Shown one piece after another: positions 1,486 to 49,670 of a stretch of 64,000 bases of DNA; the stretch's first letter is position 1, and each line of letters opens with the position of its first letter. Position numbers and translations under genes: made by a program. The DNA comes from Leptospira sp. (GTDB taxonomy: Bacteria; Spirochaetota; Leptospiria; Leptospirales; Leptospiraceae): positions 64,001 to 128,000 of the forward strand of contig JAWXAQ010000030.1 in the NCBI GenBank assembly GCA_034439575.1, read 5' to 3'. The notes beneath the pieces were generated by a model, which made no database searches, was not told the origin of the DNA, and saw only the letters and a list, made by a program, of their open reading frames with translations.

Positions 1486-1676
1486 AATGCACTCTCCCTA
1501 AGAAATACCGATTCCATTTTGGCATACCTTTGCCTTCTTTGTCTGTACCTTTTTTTAGGAGAAAGGATAGAAGCGATCCGAATAATTATAGATTTTTTAG
1601 CTGGATTTTTAATAAAAAGGGAACCCGAATTTTTCCGAGGTGAATTGCAAAAACGGATCTAAATTAAAAATAAATT

Positions 1677-1980
1677 GGCACCTCGGATTTGTTATATGGA
1701 GTAAGAATTGTTACTAAACCCGAGCCCACTTTTAGCTACAATCTTTCGCATAACTTAGTATAAGTAGAATTTAATTAAATTGCGAAAGGATTTACGCATC
1801 GATCGGTGGTGCAGGGCAAATCTCGTTCCCATCTACCTTCTCTCTCACCTCCGTGCTCGATGGAAGGAATACGACATCCATTTCTCCGCTACCGATGGAA
1901 ACAAGGTTTGCATGTCCGAAGAAAGATCGAATACGAAAATCTTTTTCAATACTTTGGGCACCTCGGATTTGTTATATGGA
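1677..1980. repeat. 24-bp perfect direct repeat pair GGCACCTCGGATTTGTTATATGGA (1677-1700 and 1957-1980)
   Basis: Identical 24-mers 280 bp apart in a non-coding pocket. Confidence 0.9.
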
Positions 1981-2344
1981 TGGAACATTTTCTCAGAATT
2001 GGATTCGCTCTTCTAAAAGTGGAAACAATAGTTTGTGTCGCTTCTGTTCGTTTTATCGAATTGCATATAAAACCCAGAATAAAGTCTCTCGATCCATAGA
2101 AAGTAAGCTTTATGACCTAGAAAAATCGTTTAGCCAAATTAATCAAAAGAAGTAAATAATCAGAAAATTGAAAAAAGAATTTAAGAATTCGGTTAAACGC
2201 CTATTACAGAAGCATATTTGCTTACAATGTCGTGTATCCTAGATGGTTATGCGCAACAATTCATAAAAGAAACAAATATTGATTTATTCAATATTTGTTT
2301 CTTACTAACAATACATCCATAATGCATTGTTCCTTCGCTTCCAT

Positions 2345-3298
2345 TTAAATTTTATTAAAAATGCCAGGGGTTTGTTGCGGTTCATCTTTATACAGATACA
2401 AAATACATTCACGAATATAAGTAAATTGAGTTAGCACTTTCCAATAATAAGTATCATTTTCTAATTTGGATAAATCGATATGACAATTGAATGAATCACA
2501 AGTGCTTTGTAAGGCAATAAATTTAAATTTTATATCCTTGGAGATTAAAATCAAATAATTTTTGAACAACATTGCAGGCACGATATTCGAATTATTATAC
2601 TGAGTCATTGGTATATTTGTTTCGGTCGGAATTTCATTGATAGTCGTGCATTCTGTAGGAACCGTTAAAGAGGCGATAGACGGAGGCGAAGATTCATTTT
2701 TTTTCCCTACAAATCGAAATTTAAATTCTTCATTGTTTGTTATGTTGAATTGATTGTTAGGAGCATCTATGTAAATGGCATCCGCCGGAGAGCTTAGCAA
2801 AAAAATAACGTTAATCAAATTACTACTTTCAGTAGGCTCAGCTGGTGTATTAATAAAAACGATAAAGGATAAAATCAAAATGATCCTCTTATCACTTGCG
2901 AATCCTAATCTATCTCTATAATTTGTAAAATTAAGATAAGATGGCAACAATGCCAACAAACAAACTAAATCGCTTACGTCCGCTGTTCCCTTATTTTTAA
3001 AACCAAATTCTAAAAGTGAGTAAATCGTATCATTCCATCTTTGCGAAATATTTATTACCAAGAAAACACAAAATACTAACAAAGAATTTGCGATAAATGT
3101 AATATTCTCATTTATTTTTGAAAAAATAGTACCAATGAATGCAGTCAGTATAAAAGGGCTGAGATAGATTCCGATCAAATCGGAAATTTTTCCCGTTACT
3201 ATACCTGGAAAATATTTTTTGAAAAATAAATCATTCATAAACCAGATCCCAAGTAAAAGAATATGAGAATTTAAATTTAATATTTTTAGCGATTTCAT
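2345..3298 (-). CDS. Hypothetical membrane protein: N-terminal multi-TM domain (NDxxxK...TGKISD motif) plus soluble C-terminal domain
   Basis: ORF 2345..3442; start moved to ATG 3298 (MKSLKIL), 2 nt after the stop of the upstream lipoprotein; ~5 hydrophobic segments. Confidence 0.7.
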   Translation of the reverse strand: MKSLKILNLNSHILLLGIWFMNDLFFKKYFPGIVTGKISDLIGIYLSPFILTAFIGTIFSKINENITFIANSLLVFCVFLVINISQRWNDTIYSLLEFGFKNKGTADVSDLVCLLALLPSYLNFTNYRDRLGFASDKRIILILSFIVFINTPAEPTESSNLINVIFLLSSPADAIYIDAPNNQFNITNNEEFKFRFVGKKNESSPPSIASLTVPTECTTINEIPTETNIPMTQYNNSNIVPAMLFKNYLILISKDIKFKFIALQSTCDSFNCHIDLSKLENDTYYWKVLTQFTYIRECILYLYKDEPQQTPGIFNKI

Positions 3299-5090: not shown

Positions 5091-5130
5091 TCGTCTCATC
5101 AAACGTGCATGAGACGATTCTTCATTTTTT
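5091..5130. terminator. Stem-loop between the two flaB genes
   Basis: TCGTCTCAT-N9-ATGAGACGA (5091-5117); the T-rich tail is on the plus strand. Confidence 0.55.
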
Positions 5131-5975
5131 TATCGAAGGAGAGACAGTACGCCTTGTGGTCGGACATTTGCCTGAGCGAGCATTGCAGTTCCAGATTGAA
5201 TTAAAATCTGGTTCTTAGTGAACTCTACGGTCTCTTCAGCCATATCAACATCTCGGATTCTAGATTCAGACGCTTGTGTGTTTTCATAAGCATTCATCAA
5301 ACCTTTAGCTGTGTGTTCCAATCTATTGAAATACGCACCTAAGTTTGCTCTTTGTTTGCTAATTCTGTTTAAAGCATCATCTAACTTTCCGATAGATTCA
5401 TTGGCTTGGTCGGCAGTTGACAGAGTCAGTGCTATGTTACTTTGACTTTTCAAATTCAAAGATTTGGCAGTCATAGTAGCGATAAACACTCGTTCTCTGT
5501 GGTGTTGATTTGGACCCAAGTGAAACCACATGGATGCAGATCTAGAACCACGAGCAAAGTCACCTTGCAGTAAATTCATTTTATTGAATTCTGCCTGAGA
5601 AGCAATACGGTCCACCTCGTCGATGAGCTGTGATACTTCTACTTGGATCATTTGTCTGTCTTCGTCCGTATAGATTCCGTTAGACGACTGAATCGCTAAC
5701 ACACGAATTCTTTGGATGATATCACCAGTCTGCGCAAGGAAACCCTCGGTCGTCTGTATGAGACTCATTCCGTCTTCTGTGTTACGTTCAGCCTGTCTTA
5801 GGCCATTCACTTGCGTTCTGAGTTTTTCAGATACGGCAAGACCGGAGGCATCGTCAGCGGCACTGTTGATGCGGAGACCCGAAGAGAGTTTCGACATATT
5901 TTTCGAAACTTCCTCGTTTTGAAATTTGAGCACGCGGTGGGAGTTAATCGCGGCTAGATTGTGATTTATGATCAT
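5130..5975 (-). CDS. flaB: Periplasmic flagellar filament core protein FlaB (proximal copy)
   Basis: [27 protein letters not shown]...[15 protein letters not shown]...[23 protein letters not shown]. Confidence 0.97.
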
Positions 5976-6123: not shown

Positions 6124-6243
6124 ATTTGAAGATTTTGATATGCAATTAGGTTTTATTGCACTTTATTGCGGTTTTTTGGACTTTTTCTCTGACTTTAGCA
6201 CTTTATTTTTTTTAAAAAAAAGTGTAAATTTTTCCTAATAGGA

Positions 6244-38993: not shown

Positions 38994-39869
38994 CTAGTTC
39001 GTTACCTGAATCGCCATCATATCACCCTGGTTAGTATACTTTACGATTCTATCAAAAAAATATTTTTTGATTTTAAAGAAAGGATTAGCATTAGATTTAT
39101 TTGTCATTCCACTACCATACGTAATGGATTTTGGTGAATTAAAATCCAATTCTTTCAATAATTGGATCAGACCACTCAAACTATAATAATATAAGTGTTC
39201 TGGTACATTTAAATACCGCCAATCTAAACCCTTCCATTTGGCGAGGATTCCATAACGACAAGTAGAGAGGATAAGTGTACCGCCTGGATTCAAATGCTTT
39301 TTAATTTTTTGAAGTGTTTCTTTTGGTTTGTGTAGGTGTTCGATGGTCGCCCACATCGTGATCACATCATATTTATTTTTAAAATCCTGATCCCAAGCCA
39401 GAAAATCTTCTTTATGAATCTTTAACCCGAGTTTGTTCCGAGCAAATTCCACTGGTCCATCTGCGACTTCAATTCCTTCTGATTCATAACCTTTTGTGCG
39501 CATAAAATCAACAAAGTATCCAGCGGCACAACCAATATCCAGTGATCGAAGACTAACATGGTTTGAAAGACGATATTCTTTTTCCCATTTAAAAAATCCT
39601 AAGTCATTAAGATTTAATTGAAAAACTCGACTGATTTCACTTCGAATTTTATCTGAATAATAATTGTCATAACCTCTATCCGTTCTTTCTGTAAAATAGG
39701 AATTATTATAATACTTCAGCACCTCATTTAAGTTTGGTTGCGGATTCACTTGTACTAAACGGCATTTTTTACAGCGAACAATCTTAAACGATTCTCCAAG
39801 TGGACTAGCTTTTTCAAAAATAAAGTTAAATTGAGAGGAGCCACAAGTATTACAATTTACAATTTCCAT
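38994..39869 (-). CDS. Class I SAM-dependent methyltransferase with N-terminal CxxC...CxxC zinc ribbon
   Basis: CNTC/CKKC; LDIGCAAG; YDVITMWATIEHL; PEHLYYYS. Confidence 0.9.
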   Translation of the reverse strand: MEIVNCNTCGSSQFNFIFEKASPLGESFKIVRCKKCRLVQVNPQPNLNEVLKYYNNSYFTERTDRGYDNYYSDKIRSEISRVFQLNLNDLGFFKWEKEYRLSNHVSLRSLDIGCAAGYFVDFMRTKGYESEGIEVADGPVEFARNKLGLKIHKEDFLAWDQDFKNKYDVITMWATIEHLHKPKETLQKIKKHLNPGGTLILSTCRYGILAKWKGLDWRYLNVPEHLYYYSLSGLIQLLKELDFNSPKSITYGSGMTNKSNANPFFKIKKYFFDRIVKYTNQGDMMAIQVTN

Positions 39870-39892: not shown

Positions 39893-40729
39893 CTAAAATG
39901 ATTTGATTAATCTACGAATGATTAAAAAACAAAAAGACAATAAACACATAAAAAGTATGATCAAAGATGAAGTGGGAAAATAAATATCTTCTCCATGATA
40001 ATTGACACCAGTAAGACTCAGCAAAAATCCACCAGCTGTGCCAATGACTGAAAACAATACACATAAAATCGCAAGTATACGTGTTGATTTAACAATTGGC
40101 AATAGTGTAAAGACAGGAAGTAACATATGTGCAATGGAATAATAGGAACCTAAAATATTTACAGCCACAGTCACTGCGATGGATAGTATCATATAAAATA
40201 TGATATCAAAAATAATCGGATTTCCGATTTGGATTCTATATTCTTCCCTATCAAAACTCAAAAACAAAAATCTTCTAAATAATGCGATGTATAAAAACAA
40301 AGACAATAAGGCGAGCCATACACTGAGTGAATTGAGTTTCACTTGGGAAGTTAAGATATCTCCGAAATAAGAAGCCAACAAATGATTTTGGACATTCCCA
40401 CCTAATGCTAATAAAACTTGAGATAAGGATGCGAAAAAAACAAAAAGTATTCCAAGAACTACTTCTTCTTTCATGACTGTTGTTTTCCTTAATATGACTA
40501 AAGGAAAAATCAAAAGCATAGAAATCAATATAGGTGCGATTTCATTTTCCCATGACATAAATAGAGAAAAAGCTACCGAAAAACTAACTGCTTGTGATAA
40601 TGTAACACCAAAAAAAGTCATATTTCTTAATACAAGCAGTATCCCCAAAACACTCAAAAGTGCTCCGATGATACTACCGATTAAAATTTGGGGGAGAAAC
40701 AACTCCCAGTTATTTAATAAATCAATCAT
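39893..40729 (-). CDS. znuB: Zn/Mn ABC transporter permease (ZnuB-like)
   Basis: ABC-3 family pattern LLVLRNMTFFGVTLSQ...YFGDILT...LSFDRE; start moved to ATG 40729, overlapping the ATPase stop. Confidence 0.82.
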   Translation of the reverse strand: MIDLLNNWELFLPQILIGSIIGALLSVLGILLVLRNMTFFGVTLSQAVSFSVAFSLFMSWENEIAPILISMLLIFPLVILRKTTVMKEEVVLGILFVFFASLSQVLLALGGNVQNHLLASYFGDILTSQVKLNSLSVWLALLSLFLYIALFRRFLFLSFDREEYRIQIGNPIIFDIIFYMILSIAVTVAVNILGSYYSIAHMLLPVFTLLPIVKSTRILAILCVLFSVIGTAGGFLLSLTGVNYHGEDIYFPTSSLIILFMCLLSFCFLIIRRLIKSF

Positions 40730-41438
40730 GATGATGGCAGTTAGGTGGTCTCTCACCGTCAGAGATTTTATAAAATTTTCCTTCATCTATTTCAAAAATT
40801 TCATCAAATCCATCTTTCCAATCATGATCCAAACTATGAGTTATAAAAAAGAAGGCTCTAGTTTTTGGAAATAAATATTCTTTCAGTACCACTTGGAATA
40901 AATCCCTAGATTTATGATCGAGTGAGTCCATAGGTTCATCCAAAAATATCAAATCGGCTTCAGTAAGAAGAGAACGTAAAATTAATACTCGCTGCAACTG
41001 ACCTCCACTACATTCGGAAATCTGTTTATTCAAATATTCGATTACTCCAGTTCTCTCAATCAATTCCATCTGTGCTTCTGAAAATTTATTCTTTGGAAAA
41101 AAACTTAAGCCAATATTTTTTGGCATGAGCAACACTTCTTGGACATTCAAAGGATAATCCAATCTCATTTTTTTTGCCTGAGGAACGTAGGAACAAGAAA
41201 TATGTTTTGAAAAGAATAAATTTCCCGAAAGTGGACTGAGTAAACCTGTCAAGGTTCGAAAAACAGTTGTTTTGCCAGCTCCATTCCCACCAACTAATGC
41301 ATATGTTTTGCCAGGGAGAATCGTAAAGGATATATCTGAAACCACCGGAAAACCTTTCCTGTAACCAACAGATAAATGATCCGTCTTTACAAAAAATTCA
41401 TCCGTAGAAAGTAAATTATTTTGTTTTATCTGCAGCAT
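40722..41438 (-). CDS. znuC: Zn/Mn ABC transporter ATPase (ZnuC-like)
   Basis: GGNGAGKTT, YVPQ, CSGGQLQRV, LDEP, ITH; C-terminal CHHHD. Confidence 0.85.
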   Translation of the reverse strand: MLQIKQNNLLSTDEFFVKTDHLSVGYRKGFPVVSDISFTILPGKTYALVGGNGAGKTTVFRTLTGLLSPLSGNLFFSKHISCSYVPQAKKMRLDYPLNVQEVLLMPKNIGLSFFPKNKFSEAQMELIERTGVIEYLNKQISECSGGQLQRVLILRSLLTEADLIFLDEPMDSLDHKSRDLFQVVLKEYLFPKTRAFFFITHSLDHDWKDGFDEIFEIDEGKFYKISDGERPPNCHHHD

Positions 41439-42348
41439 CTCTTATTTTCTGTAAGGAAATTTTCAATGAATCTTCATACGTTTGTGCATCAGCAGTCCCT
41501 CCGACAGAGACGGGTAAAACCACAACCATACTCCCTGGAACTTTGGAAGAAACATATTCTGCATACTTCTGATTATTGTATGGTCCAATCAGTATAATTT
41601 TGATTTTTTCTGCCAGCATATAGGAAACGACTTGGTCCATATAACGAACAGATGGTGGAACACCAGGTCTTTCTTCGATTGTCAAATTTGCATTGAATTT
41701 AAATCGTGAGGCTAAATAAATAAATTGATCATGGAATACGGCAACTTTTAAACCAAAATAAGGTTCCATCTTCTTTAATTCATCTTTTGTGAGTGTTATC
41801 AGCTTCTTTTTGAAGTTATTGAAATTCTCATCGTAATAATCACCATTCATTGGATCAATTCTAATTAACGCATTCTTTATGTTTTGTGCCATCTGAATCG
41901 CATTGATTGGATCATTCCAATAATGTGGATTTCCATAGATGTGCATATCACCCATAGACCTATCCATCATAACTGCAGGTTCGCCGAGAATTTTTATTCC
42001 GAAAGATGTATCGCAATACCCAGGTTGTCCTTTTTGAATTTTAACATTGCGGGATTGTTGTTGTAAGTAAGGGATCCAACCTACTTCCATATCCAATCCT
42101 ATCACACATAAAATGTCCGCTTCATTTAACTTTACTATGAAATCTGGTCTTGTCATTACAAAGTGTGGATCATCAGTTCCACGAATCATACCATACACAT
42201 CCGCTCTATCACCTGCGACCTGTTCTGCGATATATCGTATATCGGTAATACTTGCGACCAATGAAACTTTTGCTTGAATACTTTCTGTAAAACCAAATAG
42301 GCTAAAACAAAAAAATAATAGGTGAATTAAATATCTGAATTTTTTCAT
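41416..42348 (-). CDS. znuA: Zn/Mn ABC substrate-binding protein (ZnuA/TroA-like)
   Basis: DDPHF, GDMHIYGNPHYWNDP, VFHDQFIYL, EERPGVPPS; start 42348 or 42360. Confidence 0.88.
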   Translation of the reverse strand: MKKFRYLIHLLFFCFSLFGFTESIQAKVSLVASITDIRYIAEQVAGDRADVYGMIRGTDDPHFVMTRPDFIVKLNEADILCVIGLDMEVGWIPYLQQQSRNVKIQKGQPGYCDTSFGIKILGEPAVMMDRSMGDMHIYGNPHYWNDPINAIQMAQNIKNALIRIDPMNGDYYDENFNNFKKKLITLTKDELKKMEPYFGLKVAVFHDQFIYLASRFKFNANLTIEERPGVPPSVRYMDQVVSYMLAEKIKIILIGPYNNQKYAEYVSSKVPGSMVVVLPVSVGGTADAQTYEDSLKISLQKIRDAADKTK

Positions 42349-42365
42349 TTTATACCTCATCCAAT

Positions 42366-43721
42366 TTAATAACTATGCGCGGGGTGTGAACCTAAAATGG
42401 CAACTGTCTGAAAATAAATTCGATATTCTCGAACTTCTTGAAAATCTTCTTTCGAAAAATCTTGTATATAGCGCCGCTCTAGCGAACCACGAATTTTTCC
42501 AAATTCAGAACTATGAAAAGTCATTTGCAAGGATTGTGCTTCAATCGCATTTTTTGCTGGAGTGCCATCCTTGTTTGTCAAACTTTTATCTGTTAAATAA
42601 TCGTATCTAAATCCCGCAGACCATAGTTGATGAAATTTGTATTCGGCGAAAACATAATAGCCCCATTGGTCTTTTGAAGGAGTCTTTTTTGTGAGGTATG
42701 TAGTACTATCGATTGTGTCGGGAAATATTTCTTGTTGGTACCAAAACTCAGAAAGTAACATCACTTCCCGTAGATTAGATTGATTCCAGCGAAGTACACC
42801 ATCTAATCCGTATAGATATCTTTGGTTCCGTCGGTTTGTAGTAGGTTCAAATCGTACGCCAGAAAAACCAAACTGTGTTCCCCAATTGTTTCCAAAATAA
42901 TAAAAATGTTTGAGATGCAAATAACCCATAGGATTATTTTTTGCTTCACCTTCGGTATGAGTATGTCCCCACTTCTTTCCGTTAGTAGCACCTATGACCA
43001 ATTCTTGCGTAATTTTTTTCCATGGAAACAAAATGCTAAATTCAGCACCGGTATCCATAGCAGATTCCCAACCTATAAATTTTTCGTGAACAATAGGTGT
43101 CATAGTAAATGCACGATCATGGGAATGAATTTTATTTAAACGGCCAATATCTAAAAACATCTGGCCGACTTTAAGTGAGGTGTTAAATGGTAAAAATGGA
43201 AATTGGACCCAAGCTTCATGAACTTCATAATAATACTTTCCATTTTCACCGTGTGCAGCAGCTAAAAAATTACCACGTAACCACTGATCTACGGCACCAG
43301 AAAATCCAAATTCTGCAGTTCGAATATCCAGCTTATTATTGATACGCTCGCTAGTTCCGCGTGGTTTATTTCTATCCCAAGCACCTACGATGTCTATGGC
43401 GACAGAAACATCCATCATTAGATTCTGAGATGACCTATTGACTTGGTTATTTGATTGAACCGGAGAAGTAGTTCCTCGGGAACCCTCTGAACCTTTACTT
43501 CGATTTTCTTGATCTTTTAGGTCTTTTTCCAGTTCATCTTCCCAAGTATTTGTTTTACTGGCTGGACTTACTGATTGGGAAACTTTATTTTTCGGTTTAT
43601 TATCATCGTCTAACTCTGCTTCCCATTTCGAAGTTTGTGCAAGCAGTATAACAGAAAATAGAGTAAGGAGAATGAAACTCCCTACTCTTAAAAATTTGGA
43701 AAAGAAAAAAAAGACCATCAA
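42366..43721 (-). CDS. Putative outer-membrane beta-barrel of the metal-uptake operon
   Basis: Signal peptide, amphipathic strands, GRLNKIHSHD, GHTH, C-terminal LGSHPAHSY. Confidence 0.75.
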   Translation of the reverse strand: MMVFFFFSKFLRVGSFILLTLFSVILLAQTSKWEAELDDDNKPKNKVSQSVSPASKTNTWEDELEKDLKDQENRSKGSEGSRGTTSPVQSNNQVNRSSQNLMMDVSVAIDIVGAWDRNKPRGTSERINNKLDIRTAEFGFSGAVDQWLRGNFLAAAHGENGKYYYEVHEAWVQFPFLPFNTSLKVGQMFLDIGRLNKIHSHDRAFTMTPIVHEKFIGWESAMDTGAEFSILFPWKKITQELVIGATNGKKWGHTHTEGEAKNNPMGYLHLKHFYYFGNNWGTQFGFSGVRFEPTTNRRNQRYLYGLDGVLRWNQSNLREVMLLSEFWYQQEIFPDTIDSTTYLTKKTPSKDQWGYYVFAEYKFHQLWSAGFRYDYLTDKSLTNKDGTPAKNAIEAQSLQMTFHSSEFGKIRGSLERRYIQDFSKEDFQEVREYRIYFQTVAILGSHPAHSY

Positions 43722-43734
43722 TAATCTTCTTTGA

Positions 43735-44487
43735 TTATAGAATTGAACCAGCTATGCCAATATTCGTAGAATATATGTTAAGTGATTTGATCGTAGCTTT
43801 ATTAATTTTTAATGCAATGCGATCCCCTGAAAAGTCAAATCCAGAAAGAGATGCTTCTTCGAATCCATATGTTCCGCGGGTCACAGAAGAACATTCTCCT
43901 TCCCATCCAAATATATGAGCCCCATTTTCATTGTGCACCTCTAAACAAAGTGTTTTTTCTTGAGATAATGAAGACGCCCATGAGCCAGCTCTTCCGCCAA
44001 GTGATGATGTTGCCCCTGTTGCTAATTTCTTTTTAATTTCACTGGGTGTGATTTGAAATGTTGGACCCGAGAAGCTGGTCGTTGAAGGCAATATAACATC
44101 GATTGTAGAATCGCTCGCAGCCAATACATAAGTGATTTGAATGCTCGCTTTTTTCTCACCACCAGTGCTTGATAAACTTGAAGAATCTCTAATCAATGTT
44201 GATGTGTCACCAGTTCCGACGATCCCACCTAACAACTGAACATTGGATGCAGTAAATCCAGCTAATTTTAGGGCTGCAGCAGATGGGCCACTACACTGAG
44301 TAAAATCGAATCGCGTACCATTTGTAGGTTGAGCAGAAATGGATGTTCCCGCAGAACAAACAGCATTATTTGAAAGTGCCAAAAGAAGAGTTTCAGCTGT
44401 TTTATCTTCTTCTTCTTTTTGAAACAATTCAGCACAATTAAAAGTAAAAAGTAAGGTTATAGAAAAAAGTAATAAATTTTTAAACAT
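43735..44487 (-). CDS. Hypothetical lipoprotein, first gene of metal-uptake operon
   Basis: FTFN-C lipobox; VHNENGAHIFGW; AAGGAG RBS. Confidence 0.8.
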   Translation of the reverse strand: MFKNLLLFSITLLFTFNCAELFQKEEEDKTAETLLLALSNNAVCSAGTSISAQPTNGTRFDFTQCSGPSAAALKLAGFTASNVQLLGGIVGTGDTSTLIRDSSSLSSTGGEKKASIQITYVLAASDSTIDVILPSTTSFSGPTFQITPSEIKKKLATGATSSLGGRAGSWASSLSQEKTLCLEVHNENGAHIFGWEGECSSVTRGTYGFEEASLSGFDFSGDRIALKINKATIKSLNIYSTNIGIAGSIL

Positions 44488-44511: not shown

Positions 44512-44560
44512 CGCAACACAATTGCAAATGCAACAAAGTTTTATTTGCAACACTGTATTA
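44512..44560. promoter_or_regulatory. Triple Fur-family (Zur-like) operator, 17-bp period
   Basis: CGCAACacaATTGCA (44512), TGCAACaaaGTTTTA (44529), TGCAACactGTATTA (44546). Confidence 0.7.
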
Positions 44561-44582
44561 TTTAGAAAAATATTTTAGGTTT

Positions 44583-45584
44583 CTATGCCAACAAATATTT
44601 AGCGTTTTTGTATAGGATTTTTGCCTTGGCAGTATCGGAAATAGGCAAATTTAACAGATTACAAATGGGGTGTGAAACATTATAAGGAATGTTTGGAAAA
44701 TCAGAACCAAAAAAAATACGATCCTGGAACCTATCTAATAAAGGAATCGCAAAATCTGTATTTTCACCCGTAGCCAAAAAATCCACAAACACCATAGTGG
44801 TATCCAGATACAAATTGGAAAATTCCTCCAGTAGTGCCGCATAACCTTGAATTTCATGTGCACCCATATGAGCGATGATCACTTTCAGATTTGGATATTT
44901 CTTTATAAATGGATAAAAAAATTGTAAGCCTGTAAATTCTCCAGGTTTTGGAGCAGTGCCAGTATGTATAATGATGGGAATTTGACATTCTTGCAAATAA
45001 GAAAATGTCGGAGCTAATTCTCGTTCGTTGAGATCAAACTTACCTACTTCACAGTGAAGTTTGAATCCTTTAAATTCGTAAACTTCAACTGCTTTTTTCA
45101 CATAATTTAGAGTATCCGATTCAGGATAAAATGTCCCGAAGGGAATGGCTCCTATCCAATTTTTGTAATTATTAAATGTCCAATCGTTTAACCAGGATGC
45201 CATTTCCTTCTTATGAGCATAATTTAATGTTGTAAATTGGTAAATTTTATTTCTATGTAGAGATTCAATTCTATGTTCTTCCGAAAATCTGTAAGCGATC
45301 GGCCAATTCACCCCATCAAACCAACGCCAAATCAATTTCATTACAAATTCTGGAAAAAAATGTGTATGAATATCAATGATATGCGGAATATTCAACTTCT
45401 CTAATAAAGGAAGGTGAGGAGGAATGTCTTCATCTGTAATTGGAGGAAATGATGATTTATCTTTCCATTCAAAAGGAGATTTCAGACGAATGTCTGCTTG
45501 ATTAACAGTTAAAGGAAATTCATCCTTGTTCTGACCGAAGCAGGCAAAACAAGGATGAATCGATTCAAAAGGAGAAAATTCCAA
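44583..45584 (-). CDS. Amidohydrolase family protein (Amidohydro_2-like)
   Basis: IDIHTH, GFKLH, IIHTG, IAHMG, FGSDFP. Confidence 0.88.
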   Translation of the reverse strand: MEFSPFESIHPCFACFGQNKDEFPLTVNQADIRLKSPFEWKDKSSFPPITDEDIPPHLPLLEKLNIPHIIDIHTHFFPEFVMKLIWRWFDGVNWPIAYRFSEEHRIESLHRNKIYQFTTLNYAHKKEMASWLNDWTFNNYKNWIGAIPFGTFYPESDTLNYVKKAVEVYEFKGFKLHCEVGKFDLNERELAPTFSYLQECQIPIIIHTGTAPKPGEFTGLQFFYPFIKKYPNLKVIIAHMGAHEIQGYAALLEEFSNLYLDTTMVFVDFLATGENTDFAIPLLDRFQDRIFFGSDFPNIPYNVSHPICNLLNLPISDTAKAKILYKNAKYLLA

Positions 45585-45596
45585 TCGAATATTTTC

Positions 45597-47354
45597 TTAG
45601 GCGTGAACTAAAGTTTTTTTCTTTCCTCTAATTTTCGTTAGATTGGATTCAATAATCGCAGAACTATCTAATATATAGTTATTTGTTAAATTCTTTCTAT
45701 GTTCACGACGCTCGACTTTCGAACGGCCTATGCTTCTTTCCAGAAGTAAACTAACATGAAATCTGGCTGCGGATTCCACAACTTCAAATGCTAATTCATC
45801 TCTCAAACCACTTGTGTCGATTTCTGTGAATTCTTTGACTACTGTTTCAAACTTGGAAAATAAATCTTTCAATTCACTAGATACGGTAAATTGATTCATT
45901 TCTTCATTTAAATAGGCTCTAAAGATTCCTGACTCTGACATACCAGAAACAATACCACCAATGCAAGCAACAGTTTGTAATTGAGTGGTACCTTCGTAAA
46001 TATTCGTTATACGAACATCTCGAAAGATTCTCGCTACATCATAATCTTCTGTATATCCCGCTCCGCCGTGAATTTGTACTGCATCATAAGCTACAGTATT
46101 TGCGAGTTCTGTAATATAGTATTTTGAAAGAGGAGTGAATAAACCTGCAAGTTTTTCCCATTTTTTGAAAGATTCATCTTTTCGAATGTCTTTCTCTGAG
46201 ATACCATTCATTTTGCCTCGTTCTTCTTTCCATCGGTAAAGATCTACAGCACGACTTGCTTCATATAGAATACAACGCATACCAGCTACTTCGCGTTCCA
46301 TACGATCTAACATTTTTTTAACAGCAGGAATTTGTTCTATAGGTTTGCCGAATTGAATGCGCTCAGAGGCATATTTTTTTGCTTCAAAATAAGCGGCAGT
46401 TCCGATGCCCATGGCTTGTGCTGCAATATTTAACCTTGCTTGGTTCATCATGGCCATAGAATATTTTACAAGTCCTTTGCCCTCATCACCAATAAGGATA
46501 CCAGGACTATTTTCAAAAACCACTTCGCAAGTCGGAGAACAATGTAATCCCATTTTTTTCTCAATGGATGCTACAAATACATCCTTTGAGTGAACTAGGA
46601 AAAAGGAAAGTCCACGAGCGCCACTTGTTGTAGATCCAGTTCTTGCAAGTGTTAAGATGATTGATGGGATTTCGTTGAAACCACAAGCATGAGTTATGAA
46701 TCGTTTCGTTCCAGTGATGCGCCAAACACCATCTTCGCCTTTGATAGCTTTTGTCTGTAAATTTGGTAAATCTGAACCGTAATTAGGTTCCGTCAATGCC
46801 ATCGCCCCACACAATTCACCAGCGGCCATTTTAGGAACATATTCATGAATCATTTCATCAGTTCCAAATCTTTCAACAGTTTCGGCTAAATTCATACATC
46901 CGAGTGTAATGGCAAGTCCACCATCTGCACGAGACACTGCTTCAGATAACATTGATTGTACGACAGATGGTAATCCTAGACCACCATAGTGTCTGTGAAT
47001 TCCATAAGGTAATAGACCCGCTGATTTAATCTTATTAATTACATCCACCATTTCTTTTGGAAATGTAACTTTGCCATCTTTGTATTTTAATCCCTCTTCA
47101 TCCATAGTTTTGGCAACTTGGGAAATTTCTTTTCCAGAAATATCACCAGCAGCTTCCAAACTTTGACGGTAGTATTCGATAGCATCTTCATAATTTCCTG
47201 GCGCATACGCCAATTCTTCTTTTCCGTTTTTTTGGTATGTAGCAAAGTCAGAAAAATTATCTTCATACGCTTCAACGATTTCATTCCAATTCGTTATCGA
47301 ATCAAAATGATCTTTTAAATCTTCATTATCACTAAAATAATTATTTATAATCAT
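45597..47354 (-). CDS. Acyl-CoA dehydrogenase
   Basis: [36 protein letters not shown]. Confidence 0.95.
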
Positions 47355-47442
47355 AAAACTCTCCTAAATAGAGTAAGGCTTTTATCAAATTTATCTTGAT
47401 TGCAATTGATAACAAACAAATTTTTTTGCGAAAATTGGTTCG

Positions 47443-48975
47443 TTATCTAATCTTTTCCGACTGTTCTGAAATTTCCTGAATCTGATCTTGAAGTGTTCGA
47501 GTGTTATTTGCCACCAATTGCACTGCGTCTTCAATACTTTGGGCGGCTCTCATTACTTCTTGGTTACCAAGACTTTGTTCTTTCGCGATAATTTCTAATT
47601 GAGAAGAAAGTTCTTTCAGTTCACGCTGTGAAGAAACGACTCGGGCATTAAGGTTTTGCATTTCAATGATTTTAGCATTAAATTTCTTTACACTATCTTC
47701 GATATGCTGAAGTTCTCTTTGTTGGTTGTCTGCCATCTCAGAGGCATTAGCTGCCGATCGATTTCCAATTTCTAAATCGGATCTAGATTTTAATATCGTC
47801 TTTGAAATAATACTCGCGTTATTTGCAGAATTTTCTGCCAATTTTGCAACTTCTTGCGCCACAACAGCAAAGCCTCTTCCATGTTCACCAGCCCGAGCCG
47901 CCTCAATAGATGCATTTAACGCGAGTAAGTTTGTTTGATCGGCGATTTCTTTCATGATTTGGTTTACATCTTCGACTTTTTGAAAGGAACCTCTCACTTC
48001 ACCAAACGCTGCATTAAGTGAAGACATGGAAGCTGTCACATCTGCACTAAAGCTAGATGATTGGTTGATTTGTGAACCAATTTTTTCTATTTGATTTCGG
48101 ACTTCTTGGACAATGGAATCCAATGTTACACTTTCTTCATTTAGTTTTTCTATTTTGTAATATTGGTCTTTTACAAATTGAGCAGAATTTTCTGTTGATT
48201 GGGAAATTTCTGTTAAGGAGGCGCTAATTTCTTCTATGGATGCTGCTTGTGATTGAATTTGCAAATTGAGTTCTTCGGTGAATGATTTAAGTGAAACTAC
48301 AGAAACATTTAATTTCTCTGCAATTTTTACCATATTTGCCTTTTGGTTCTCAACTATATTTGCATGTTCGTCTGATTTTGTTTTCGCATCCATAGCCTGA
48401 TCTCTAACGCTGATTAGGAGACCAACAATTTGACTCATAGCATAAGTTGCCATAAGTAAAAATATTACTTTTACGATTTCAATAGGAAGTGAAACTGCAT
48501 GGGCCAATTGGTGGGTGTCAGGTCTGTCGACAAATTGAATTCCCATTTTGTATGCAATGATTAATGCGAAGATATCCAATGTTGTTATCAGTGATCCTAT
48601 TAAAATGGTACACTTTTTTGAGAATAAAAATCCTGAATAAAGAATCACAAAAAAACAAATCGTATAATTGATGCCTAATTTTAAACTAGCAGCTGTGAGG
48701 TCAATGTCGATAATACTTTGGCCAATGACGCTGATGGAAGTAAGCAAGACATCTAATAAAAGAAAATAAAACGCATACGGTTCTTGACTTTTTCTAATTC
48801 GAAACCATTGAACAAATGCGGCTATACCATACATGACAGTGCAAAAAACCATGATGCTAAGTTGGTCAATTCGAAGTGAACCTAACGAAGATATGATTCC
48901 TAAGGTGTATATGACAAAAAGCATAATACGAATCGAATTAATCGTTTTTGCTGCGTTCTTTAGGTAATGATCCAT
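47443..48975 (-). CDS. Methyl-accepting chemotaxis protein with multi-TM N-terminus
   Basis: [33 protein letters not shown]. Confidence 0.95.
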
Positions 48976-49050
48976 TCTTCATATTGGTTATAAAGTAAAC
49001 ATTCTGACAAGCGATTAGTCGTTTCCTAGATACATTCTGCCCAAGCGCAA

Positions 49051-49132
49051 TGCAACTAAGTTGCAAAAATTGTTTGACGAAAATTCATACAATTTCATAA
49101 TGCAACCAGATTGCGTTTGCAACATAATTGCA
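49051..49132. promoter_or_regulatory. Sigma70 promoter bracketed by three Zur-like TGCAAC-N3-RTTGCA boxes
   Basis: Boxes at 49051-49065 (perfect palindrome), 49101-49115 and 49118-49132; TTGACG (49074)-N16-CATAAT (49096). Confidence 0.75.
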
Positions 49133-49154: not shown

Positions 49155-49670
49155 ATGTATATATATTTAGGAGATAAAAAAATCAAAGTCTATGAGAATC
49201 ATCTTAAAAAAGGTGAACCATTGGATGTCAAATTTACCCTTCCCCCAGCGTATAACACGAAGAAATTTTTAAAGAAAAATGATATCAATAAGGGTCTTGT
49301 CATTTTATCAACTCTTCCGAATATCAAATCCAATGAATGTTCGACTCAAGTATTGGATTTGGAAACAGAAGTGAATGCCAGAAAATTAAATGCAAAAATA
49401 TTTCATATTGCTTGTGATTGTCCAAATCATTGGGATGAAGTAAAACAACTCCATCCATTCTTAAAAGCGAAAGGATATACTTTTGAATTGGCCAATCAAA
49501 ATGATATAGAAAATTTCAAACAAACATTAGGTGTTGGAGTCTATGGCTCTAAACGAATAGTCCATGGTCTTTTTGCTTTTTTGGATGGAAAACTATTATC
49601 TTCTTATATTCCAAAACAACAATATGGAACTCCGAATGTAAAAAAATTTCTAAATTCATTGGATATTTAA
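49155..49670 (+). CDS. Divergent thiol-peroxidase (Tpx/peroxiredoxin-fold) protein
   Basis: LSTLPNIKSNECSTQ aligns by eye with Tpx PSxDTxVC; IACDCP with SxDLP; RIVHGLFAFLDG with LARAVFVVD; start moved to ATG 49155. Confidence 0.65.
   Translation: MYIYLGDKKIKVYENHLKKGEPLDVKFTLPPAYNTKKFLKKNDINKGLVILSTLPNIKSNECSTQVLDLETEVNARKLNAKIFHIACDCPNHWDEVKQLHPFLKAKGYTFELANQNDIENFKQTLGVGVYGSKRIVHGLFAFLDGKLLSSYIPKQQYGTPNVKKFLNSLDI

Follow-up and report, generated by a model that had tools for sequence, protein, structure and literature searches.

The closest described relative of the element analysed here is a predicted operator of Desulfovibrio. According to passages of Rodionov et al. 2004 (PMC545781), ATGCAACNNNGTTGCAT is predicted to be the site of ZUR ahead of znuABC-zur in two genomes of Desulfovibrio; the box is assigned to a divergent Fur-family protein and occurs once per operon, the regulator is encoded within the operon, and the prediction itself is computational. 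Canonical Zur boxes, such as TAAATCGTAATNATTACGATTTA (quoted in the same passages of PMC545781), are AT-rich, and in E. coli several Zur dimers bind one operator cooperatively, as described in passages of PMC6103462. Look-ups of the terms GCAAC, GTTGC, Leptospira and Desulfovibrio in Zur reviews gave no match, and the listings of a literature search contained no publication on zinc regulation in Leptospira. Here we analyse two arrays of inverted repeats of the type TGCAAC-N3-RTTGCA in a stretch of 64,000 nucleotides from Leptospira sp. (contig JAWXAQ010000030.1 of assembly GCA_034439575.1, forward strand, G+C content 35.4%), referred to as the window. The arrays precede an operon for a ZnuABC-type importer and a gene for a protein with thiol peroxidase (Tpx) fold, and their boxes are very probably the operators of a zinc-responsive Fur-family repressor that is Zur in function.

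Two box arrays at two promoters

Array 1 is located in a 95-bp gap upstream of the metal operon, which is encoded on the minus strand. Box 1 (44512..44526, CGCAAC-aca-ATTGCA) is two-sided and lies nearest to the operon, 25 bp from its start codon. Box 2 (44529..44543, TGCAAC-aaa-GTTTTA) combines a perfect left half with a degenerate distal half, and box 3 (44546..44560, TGCAAC-act-GTATTA) likewise has a perfect left and a degenerate right half, amounting to three mismatches to the pattern. Array 2 belongs to the gene for the Tpx-fold protein and consists of box 4 (49051..49065, TGCAAC-taa-GTTGCA), a perfect palindrome, and of the two-sided boxes 5 (49101..49115, TGCAAC-cag-ATTGCG) and 6 (49118..49132, TGCAAC-ata-ATTGCA), the latter being located in the 5' leader, 17 bp past box 5. 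A sequence-only reading of this DNA had named these six boxes, an exact 17-bp period (44512, 44529 and 44546; 49101 and 49118) and the palindrome at 49051, all of which agree with the sequence. Its description of the boxes as TGCAAC-N3-RTTGCA sites holds on both sides for boxes 1, 4, 5 and 6, whereas boxes 2 and 3 are half-boxes only.

The Desulfovibrio consensus that had been named together with these boxes, ATGCAACnnnGTTGCAT, is indeed published as a ZUR site upstream of znuABC-zur (passages of PMC545781), and box 4 matches it at 16 of 17 positions when compared by eye. The likeness includes the 6-3-6 (7-3-7) palindrome, the flanking A/T and the position upstream of a znuABC-type operon. Unlike the single Desulfovibrio box, the boxes of the window form abutting arrays at a 17-bp register, they are found at two promoters and no regulator gene is located nearby. 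With the canonical Zur regulons of E. coli, B. subtilis and Acinetobacter the leptospiral system shares znuABC-type importers, a COG0523 chaperone and operators that overlap promoters, but the sequence of the box is unrelated to the canonical one.

The exact pattern TGCAACNNNRTTGCA gave three strand matches at two sites in the window against an expectation of 0.00, and three or more were reached in 0 of 100 dinucleotide shuffles. The register is equally exceptional, as two pairs of TGCAAC lie exactly 17 bp apart (shuffle mean 0.007), a number reached in 0 of 300 shuffles. Looser measures were not significant in the window: with up to two mismatches there are 15 strand matches versus 9.66 ± 4.24 expected, and 12 of 100 shuffles reach 15; the hexamer TGCAAC occurs 18 times versus 25.03 expected; and the four cases of neighbouring half-sites within 100 bp were reached in 21 of 300 shuffles. 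Still, 10 of the 15 strand matches and 6 of the 18 hexamers fall inside the two arrays. A weight matrix, which was made from the six boxes themselves and is hence circular for them, placed the boxes at ranks 1-5 and 7 of the window. The site at rank 6, at 6141 (14.7 bits), was rejected as it lies within the range of the maxima of 20 shuffled sequences (mean 13.9, highest 16.8). This single site (6141-6157, ATGCAAT-tag-GTTTTAT) precedes a flagellin gene of the minus strand (5130-5975) by about 166 bp. The scan thus contained no convincing seventh site, in agreement with the earlier remark that the window holds no further array.

Both arrays coincide with promoter-like sites. For the metal operon a site on the minus strand (44557..44585) consists of TAGAAA, a 17-bp spacer and AATAAT and fits 9 of 12 consensus positions; its -10-like hexamer shares bases with the degenerate half of box 3, from where the array continues through boxes 2 and 1 toward the start codon. 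For the Tpx-like gene TTGACG (49074-49079), a 16-bp spacer and CATAAT (49096-49101) form a site on the plus strand (49074..49101; 10 of 12 positions). The distance from the end of box 4 to the -35 hexamer is 9 bp, and the last base of the -10 hexamer is the first base of box 5, so that the boxes bracket this promoter as had been proposed, box 4 ahead of the -35 and boxes 5 and 6 from the -10 on. In both promoters an array thus begins at the -10-like hexamer and extends downstream, i.e. an inverted-repeat operator overlaps the promoter of a ZnuABC-type operon and a second promoter is laid out alike. The overlap with the -10-like hexamer would also explain why the degenerate half of box 3 is conserved between species.

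The metal operon starts with the gene for a lipoprotein of 250 aa (43735..44487, minus strand) that belongs to no known family and to an Atlas cluster named 'Lipoprotein' (Spirochaetota). It is followed on the same strand by a gene for a putative outer-membrane protein of 451 aa (42366..43721), which has no Pfam family and belongs to the Atlas cluster 'Outer membrane protein'; clusters near this one are named TonB-dependent receptor family or porin, names we treat as leads only. The next three genes, also on the minus strand, encode a ZnuA-family substrate-binding protein (41416..42360; PF01297, E = 1.5e-46), an ABC transporter ATPase (40722..41438; PF00005) and an ABC-3 family permease (39893..40786; PF00950), for which the best NCBIfam models are AztC, AztA and AztB, respectively, each below its cut-off. 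Among solved structures the best relative of the binding protein is Synechocystis ZnuA. The three metal-binding His residues align and no Asp is present at the fourth position. In cluster A-I binding proteins an Asp at this position marks binders of Mn or Fe; read in this way, the three-His site without Asp identifies the substrate-binding protein of the window as zinc-type.

A gap of 23 bp separates the permease gene from a downstream methyltransferase gene of the same strand (38994-39869), which may share its transcript. On the other side of array 1 the genes for an amidohydrolase (44583-45584) and an acyl-CoA dehydrogenase (45597-47354) read toward the array. A terminator scan found no terminator-like site in the 95-bp gap, and transcription continuing from the amidohydrolase side toward the metal operon would run into the boxes of array 1. 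The window also carries a gene for a lipoprotein of the LIC_20245 family.

Conservation in Leptospira and exchange of the gene behind the cassette

Public genome contigs were scanned with the tandem pattern YGCAACNNNRTTGCNNNTGCAAC, which yielded at least 119 loci, 80 of them with 2-kb flanks and 39 short; all counts given below refer to the matches listed. Four of these are from Leptospira, namely two loci 4.8 kb apart in Leptospira sp. 'Mane' (L060 and L061) and one each in L. abararensis (L093) and L. yanagawae (L104). Array 1 was aligned for four species (window, L060, L093 and L104) and array 2 for two (window and L061). Although the coding DNA of these loci is only ~69-73% identical to that of the window, the half-sites are invariant in the orthologous promoters and the N3 spacers differ. 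The half-sites of box 1 are the same in all four species, and box 2 is kept in all four including its degenerate half (TAAAAC or TGAAAC on the gene strand). Box 3 is present in the window and in L060 and absent from L093 and L104; the 'Mane' array agrees with that of the window in all three boxes and their degenerate halves, and those of L. abararensis and L. yanagawae have two boxes. An orthologue of the lipoprotein gene adjoins the array in L060, L093 and L104, and L060 also encodes an orthologue of the outer-membrane protein (73% identical).

This pattern bears on the question of whether the palindromes act as RNA, that is, as leader hairpins or terminators, or are functionless repeats. Each box can be drawn as a hairpin, a terminator scan called 49051-49065 terminator-like (a hairpin followed by T's), and boxes 5, 6 and 1 to 3 would be transcribed into leaders. 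The half-sites, however, keep their sequence without compensatory changes in the arms while the loops vary, which fits a protein-DNA contact and not an RNA hairpin. Box 4 is located between divergent genes and hence terminates nothing, boxes 2 and 3 are unable to form a hairpin, and there is no Rfam match, the sole hit having E = 0.87. Together with the link between the box and Fur-like genes in other phyla (see below), these findings make an RNA element or a functionless repeat extremely improbable.

At array 2 the entire cassette can be aligned between the window and L061, comprising the upstream box, the -35, the -10, the two abutting boxes and the ATG. The counterpart of box 4 in L061, CGCAAC-N3-GTTGCG, is found at the same place, and the -35 block of the Tpx-like promoter, TGTTTGAC, is conserved. 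The neighbourhood is that of the window as well, the flanking genes encoding a chemoreceptor and a HEAT-repeat protein, respectively. The gene behind the cassette differs. Where the window has the Tpx-fold gene (49155-49670), L061 encodes a CobW/COG0523 protein of 405 aa (2040-3257) that reaches 628.7 bits against the ZigA zinc-metallochaperone equivalog (cut-off 600), and the Tpx-like protein has no match in L061. ZigA is regulated by Zur in Acinetobacter. Hallmark genes of zinc limitation lie behind these promoters, a ZnuABC-like operon in the window and zigA in L061.

The Tpx-fold protein of the window (171 aa, 49155..49670, plus strand) starts at the ATG at 49155 and not at the TTG at 49128, as its homologues begin at the aligned Met. 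An AlphaFold2 model of the protein has a mean predicted local distance difference test score (pLDDT) of 91.3, and a Foldseek search with this model gave thiol peroxidases as top matches (template modelling score 0.81 for 2xpd, 14% identity). A sequence search of the PDB yielded nothing useful, the best E-value being 1.4 to an unrelated chain, and only the fold search placed the protein. Like the thiol peroxidase Tpx, an atypical 2-Cys peroxiredoxin, it has the fold, the peroxidatic Cys in a P-x3-S/T-x2-C motif and an invariant Arg: Ser59, Cys62 and Arg134 are invariant among the homologues. It differs from Tpx in several respects. Identity is only 12-19%, and the protein remains below every curated cut-off (AhpC-TSA 20.4 bits versus 26; no NCBIfam match). 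The second Cys is not conserved, as the pair 87/89 is missing in several members. His84, His100 and His137 are invariant in addition, and a zinc-type operator is located upstream. The family is small, with 21 relatives, of which the named ones are L. ognonensis, L. ryugenii, L. levettii and Leptospira sp., all Leptospira. On the basis of the model the protein is Tpx-like in fold, yet we do not file it as Tpx.

On the opposite strand lies a gene for a methyl-accepting chemotaxis protein (47443..48975, minus strand; PF00015). The divergent arrangement with the Tpx-like gene, which had already been pointed out for the window, recurs in L061. The only -35-like element that we could read by eye for the chemoreceptor gene is TTGTCA (49005-49010, minus strand), which is conserved in L061. 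Box 4 is located ~41 bp upstream of it, and in neither the window nor L061 does a box overlap the chemoreceptor promoter as far as it is readable by eye. The block ATTCTGACAA...ATTAG upstream of the chemoreceptor gene is conserved as well (49000-49020 in the window, ~1890-1910 in L061). Judged by eye, a promoter with TTGTCA at this position implies that the gene likely starts at an ATG a few bases inside the listed open reading frame, with a very short leader.

Tandem boxes and Fur-like proteins in other phyla

The 80 flanked loci contain 294 open reading frames of at least 100 aa. These were scanned against Pfam in sets of 150 and 137, the remaining seven being those of L060 and L061, from which five frames were scanned separately. 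A Pfam FUR domain was found beside the array in L001, L037, L039, L040 and L079. A profile of these five proteins detected a Fur-like frame at the array in 15 of the 119 loci listed, 11 of them among the 80 flanked loci (L001, L016, L037, L039, L040, L053, L056, L063, L068, L077 and L079) and four among the 39 short ones (L083, L092, L115 and L116). In 13 of these 15 the array is positioned 21-85 bp upstream of the start codon of the Fur-like gene. In L037 it is located between the Fur gene and znuA, whereas the Fur gene of L039 is the second of two genes in an operon that has the array upstream.

The other neighbours are those expected of a zinc-limitation regulon: ZnuA in L037, ZIP together with ZrgA in L040 and L053, ZrgA in L068 and L077, CobW in L056 and L063, and TonB-type receptors in L001, L013, L024, L025, L036 and L044. 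In L035, from Planctomycetota, a gene for ribosomal protein S14 is adjacent only, as the array is downstream of it; in this region (1562-3238) the array lies between the S14 gene and a gene for a flavin-dependent oxidoreductase (Pyr_redox_3). Counting TonB-type receptors and S14, 17 of 78 flanked loci outside Leptospira have Fur-like and/or zinc-type neighbours. From the record titles we take the loci to belong to Bacteroidota, Clostridia, Planctomycetota, Beta- and Gammaproteobacteria, Actinomycetota and Acidobacteriota. L001, L037, L039 and L089 contain a further full box 8 to 40 bp from the abutting pair, a layout of a separate box plus a tandem pair that is also found at the Tpx-like promoter of the window. 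The core positions of the collected boxes are fixed by the search expression and thus uninformative, but the free flanking positions of 26 boxes from Fur- or zinc-linked loci read A/T-TGCAAC...GTTGCA-A/T.

Most of the other matches lie inside long open reading frames and look like chance. Six loci from Betaproteobacteria (L026, L034, L038, L054, L081 and L095) were rejected as operators, since what matches there is a stretch conserved where the 2-oxoglutarate dehydrogenase E1 gene meets the E2 gene.

Eleven of the array-linked Fur-like proteins were aligned. They comprise 134-151 aa and have a D-R-x-T-x-Y-R helix, an H-x-H-x2-C-x2-C motif and a C-terminal C-x2-C. Among solved proteins their profile matches Fur, PerR, Zur and Nur (best E-value 9.6e-24) and, comparatively weakly at 5e-10, PerRA of L. 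interrogans (5nl9). Their named relatives are mostly Rhodocyclaceae, among the matches listed.

Several observations weigh against the assignment of the boxes to a Zur. The array-linked Fur-like proteins fall below every curated NCBIfam cut-off, including that of Zur, and their profile matches solved Fur and PerR proteins no less closely than Zur; the zinc signal is hence deduced from the neighbouring genes and not from the sequence of the regulator. A gene for a thiol-peroxidase-like protein is an unusual target of Zur and would fit a peroxide regulator. No Fur-family gene is present in the 64-kb window itself (0 of 334 frames match; best E-value 0.11), and no Leptospira name appears among the 120 listed of 879 relatives found with the profile of the 11 Fur-like proteins. 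The promoters were called by consensus match, and such sites are no more numerous than in shuffled sequences (2 versus 1.4 ± 1.1 for the region of array 1). Finally, in L010 from Paenibacillus forsythiae (1990-2100) a similar tandem array is located between divergent genes for a MarR protein and an MFS transporter, and no Fur gene was found near this array.

The first two of these points would suit a Fur-family regulator that senses peroxide, like PerR, or Mn or Fe, in which case Mn or Fe would be the cargo of the operon's importer and the Tpx-like protein an ordinary target of oxidative-stress regulation. Its thiol-peroxidase fold with catalytic Cys and Arg kept is in line with such a sensor, as are the roughly equal scores of the array-linked Fur-like proteins on PerR, Fur and Zur models. 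Transporters of the ZnuA/ABC-3 type have Mn or Fe as substrates as well; in the window, the ATPase and the binding protein score on Mn models, below the cut-offs. PerRA and PerRC, moreover, are present in saprophytic Leptospira (passages of PMC8638967). Against a sensor of this kind stand the ZigA equivalog behind the same cassette in a related Leptospira, the partners of the array in other phyla (ZnuA, ZIP, ZrgA and COG0523), the three-His site without Asp in the binding protein and the published prediction, which is ZUR (passages of PMC545781). Taken together, we regard a non-zinc Fur-family sensor as quite improbable.

The array of L010 means that another regulator family can use a similar site, and the leptospiral boxes might accordingly be read by a MarR, TetR or other protein that converged on TGCAAC-N3-GTTGCA or shares it. 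The lack of an array-linked Fur gene in the window and, by profile search, in L060 and L061 would agree with this, and the window contains two TetR genes, though far from the arrays. The associations, however, are uneven, as a Fur-like gene accompanies the array at 15 of the 119 loci listed and a MarR gene at one, and the sequence of the box, including the flanking A/T, does not differ between phyla. A reader from another family is thus very improbable, and the array of L010 may belong to an unrelated regulator with a look-alike site.

The operator of a leptospiral Fur paralog acting as Zur, which the sequence-only reading had proposed, is therefore the explanation we retain. It is supported by the conservation of the leptospiral promoters, by ZigA behind the same cassette, and by the promoters of Fur genes and the zinc-uptake neighbours elsewhere. 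On this comparative evidence the arrays appear to be genuine and conserved operators of Zur type. They belong to the class that was predicted for Desulfovibrio and occur in Leptospira as tandem arrays.

Proposed mode of action and leptospiral binding partner

We infer repression, a zinc signal and cooperative side-by-side binding, as well as the likely identity of the leptospiral protein. In the proposed mechanism zinc-bound dimers would occupy inverted repeats of 15-17 bp with the sequence (A/T)TGCAAC-N3-GTTGCA(A/T). Two or three abutting boxes, 17 bp apart from centre to centre, would cover the -10, the transcription start and the leader, so that RNA polymerase would be excluded or blocked, and at the Tpx-like promoter box 4, ahead of the -35, probably lends the complex further stability. 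As 17 bp correspond to ~1.6 helical turns, neighbouring dimers should sit on different faces of the DNA and would not clash, and cooperativity would let the half-degenerate boxes 2 and 3 be filled. When zinc is scarce the repressor would leave, and the lipoprotein, the outer-membrane protein, the ZnuABC-type importer and the Tpx-fold protein would be made.

The leptospiral protein that binds the boxes should come from the pool of PerRA, PerRB, Ffr1-3 and PerRC. Following passages of PMC8638967, saprophytic Leptospira have PerRA, Ffr1, PerRC and Ffr3, and Ffr2 and PerRB are restricted to pathogens; the function of the Ffr proteins cannot be predicted from sequence, and these passages assign neither an operator nor a metal to any of them. 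Ffr1 and Ffr3 are described there as having two CxxC motifs and an Arg in the DNA-binding helix, features that are also found in the array-linked Fur-like proteins. The relatives of the Tpx-like protein and the orthologues in L. yanagawae and L. abararensis suggest that the organism is a saprophyte. If so, Ffr1 or Ffr3 would be the candidates and not the Zur-like Ffr2, because the latter is found in pathogens only (passages of PMC8638967).

A wider reading can be put forward tentatively, and as a whole we consider it doubtful. A compact, uncurated Fur subfamily would read TGCAAC-N3-GTTGCA in at least seven phyla including the spirochaetes, its dimers aligning side by side at the 17-bp register. 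The Leptospira cassette would be a portable module that drives either ZigA or a lineage-specific Tpx-fold protein. The latter, with Cys62, His84, His100 and His137, would be a zinc-starvation protein and could act as a peroxidase guarding thiols freed of zinc or as a metal-handling stand-in for ZigA, and the divergent chemoreceptor might join the response.

For the genus Leptospira the arrays represent a first candidate zinc regulon, and they supply a DNA probe of defined sequence and two target promoters for testing each leptospiral Fur paralog. Two side results are notable. The replacement of ZigA by a Tpx-fold gene, with the promoter itself conserved, illustrates regulon turnover cleanly. 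The other is the link of the box to an uncurated Fur subfamily across phyla, and this link between box and Fur-like genes turns the two-genome prediction made for Desulfovibrio in 2004 into a broadly supported type of operator.

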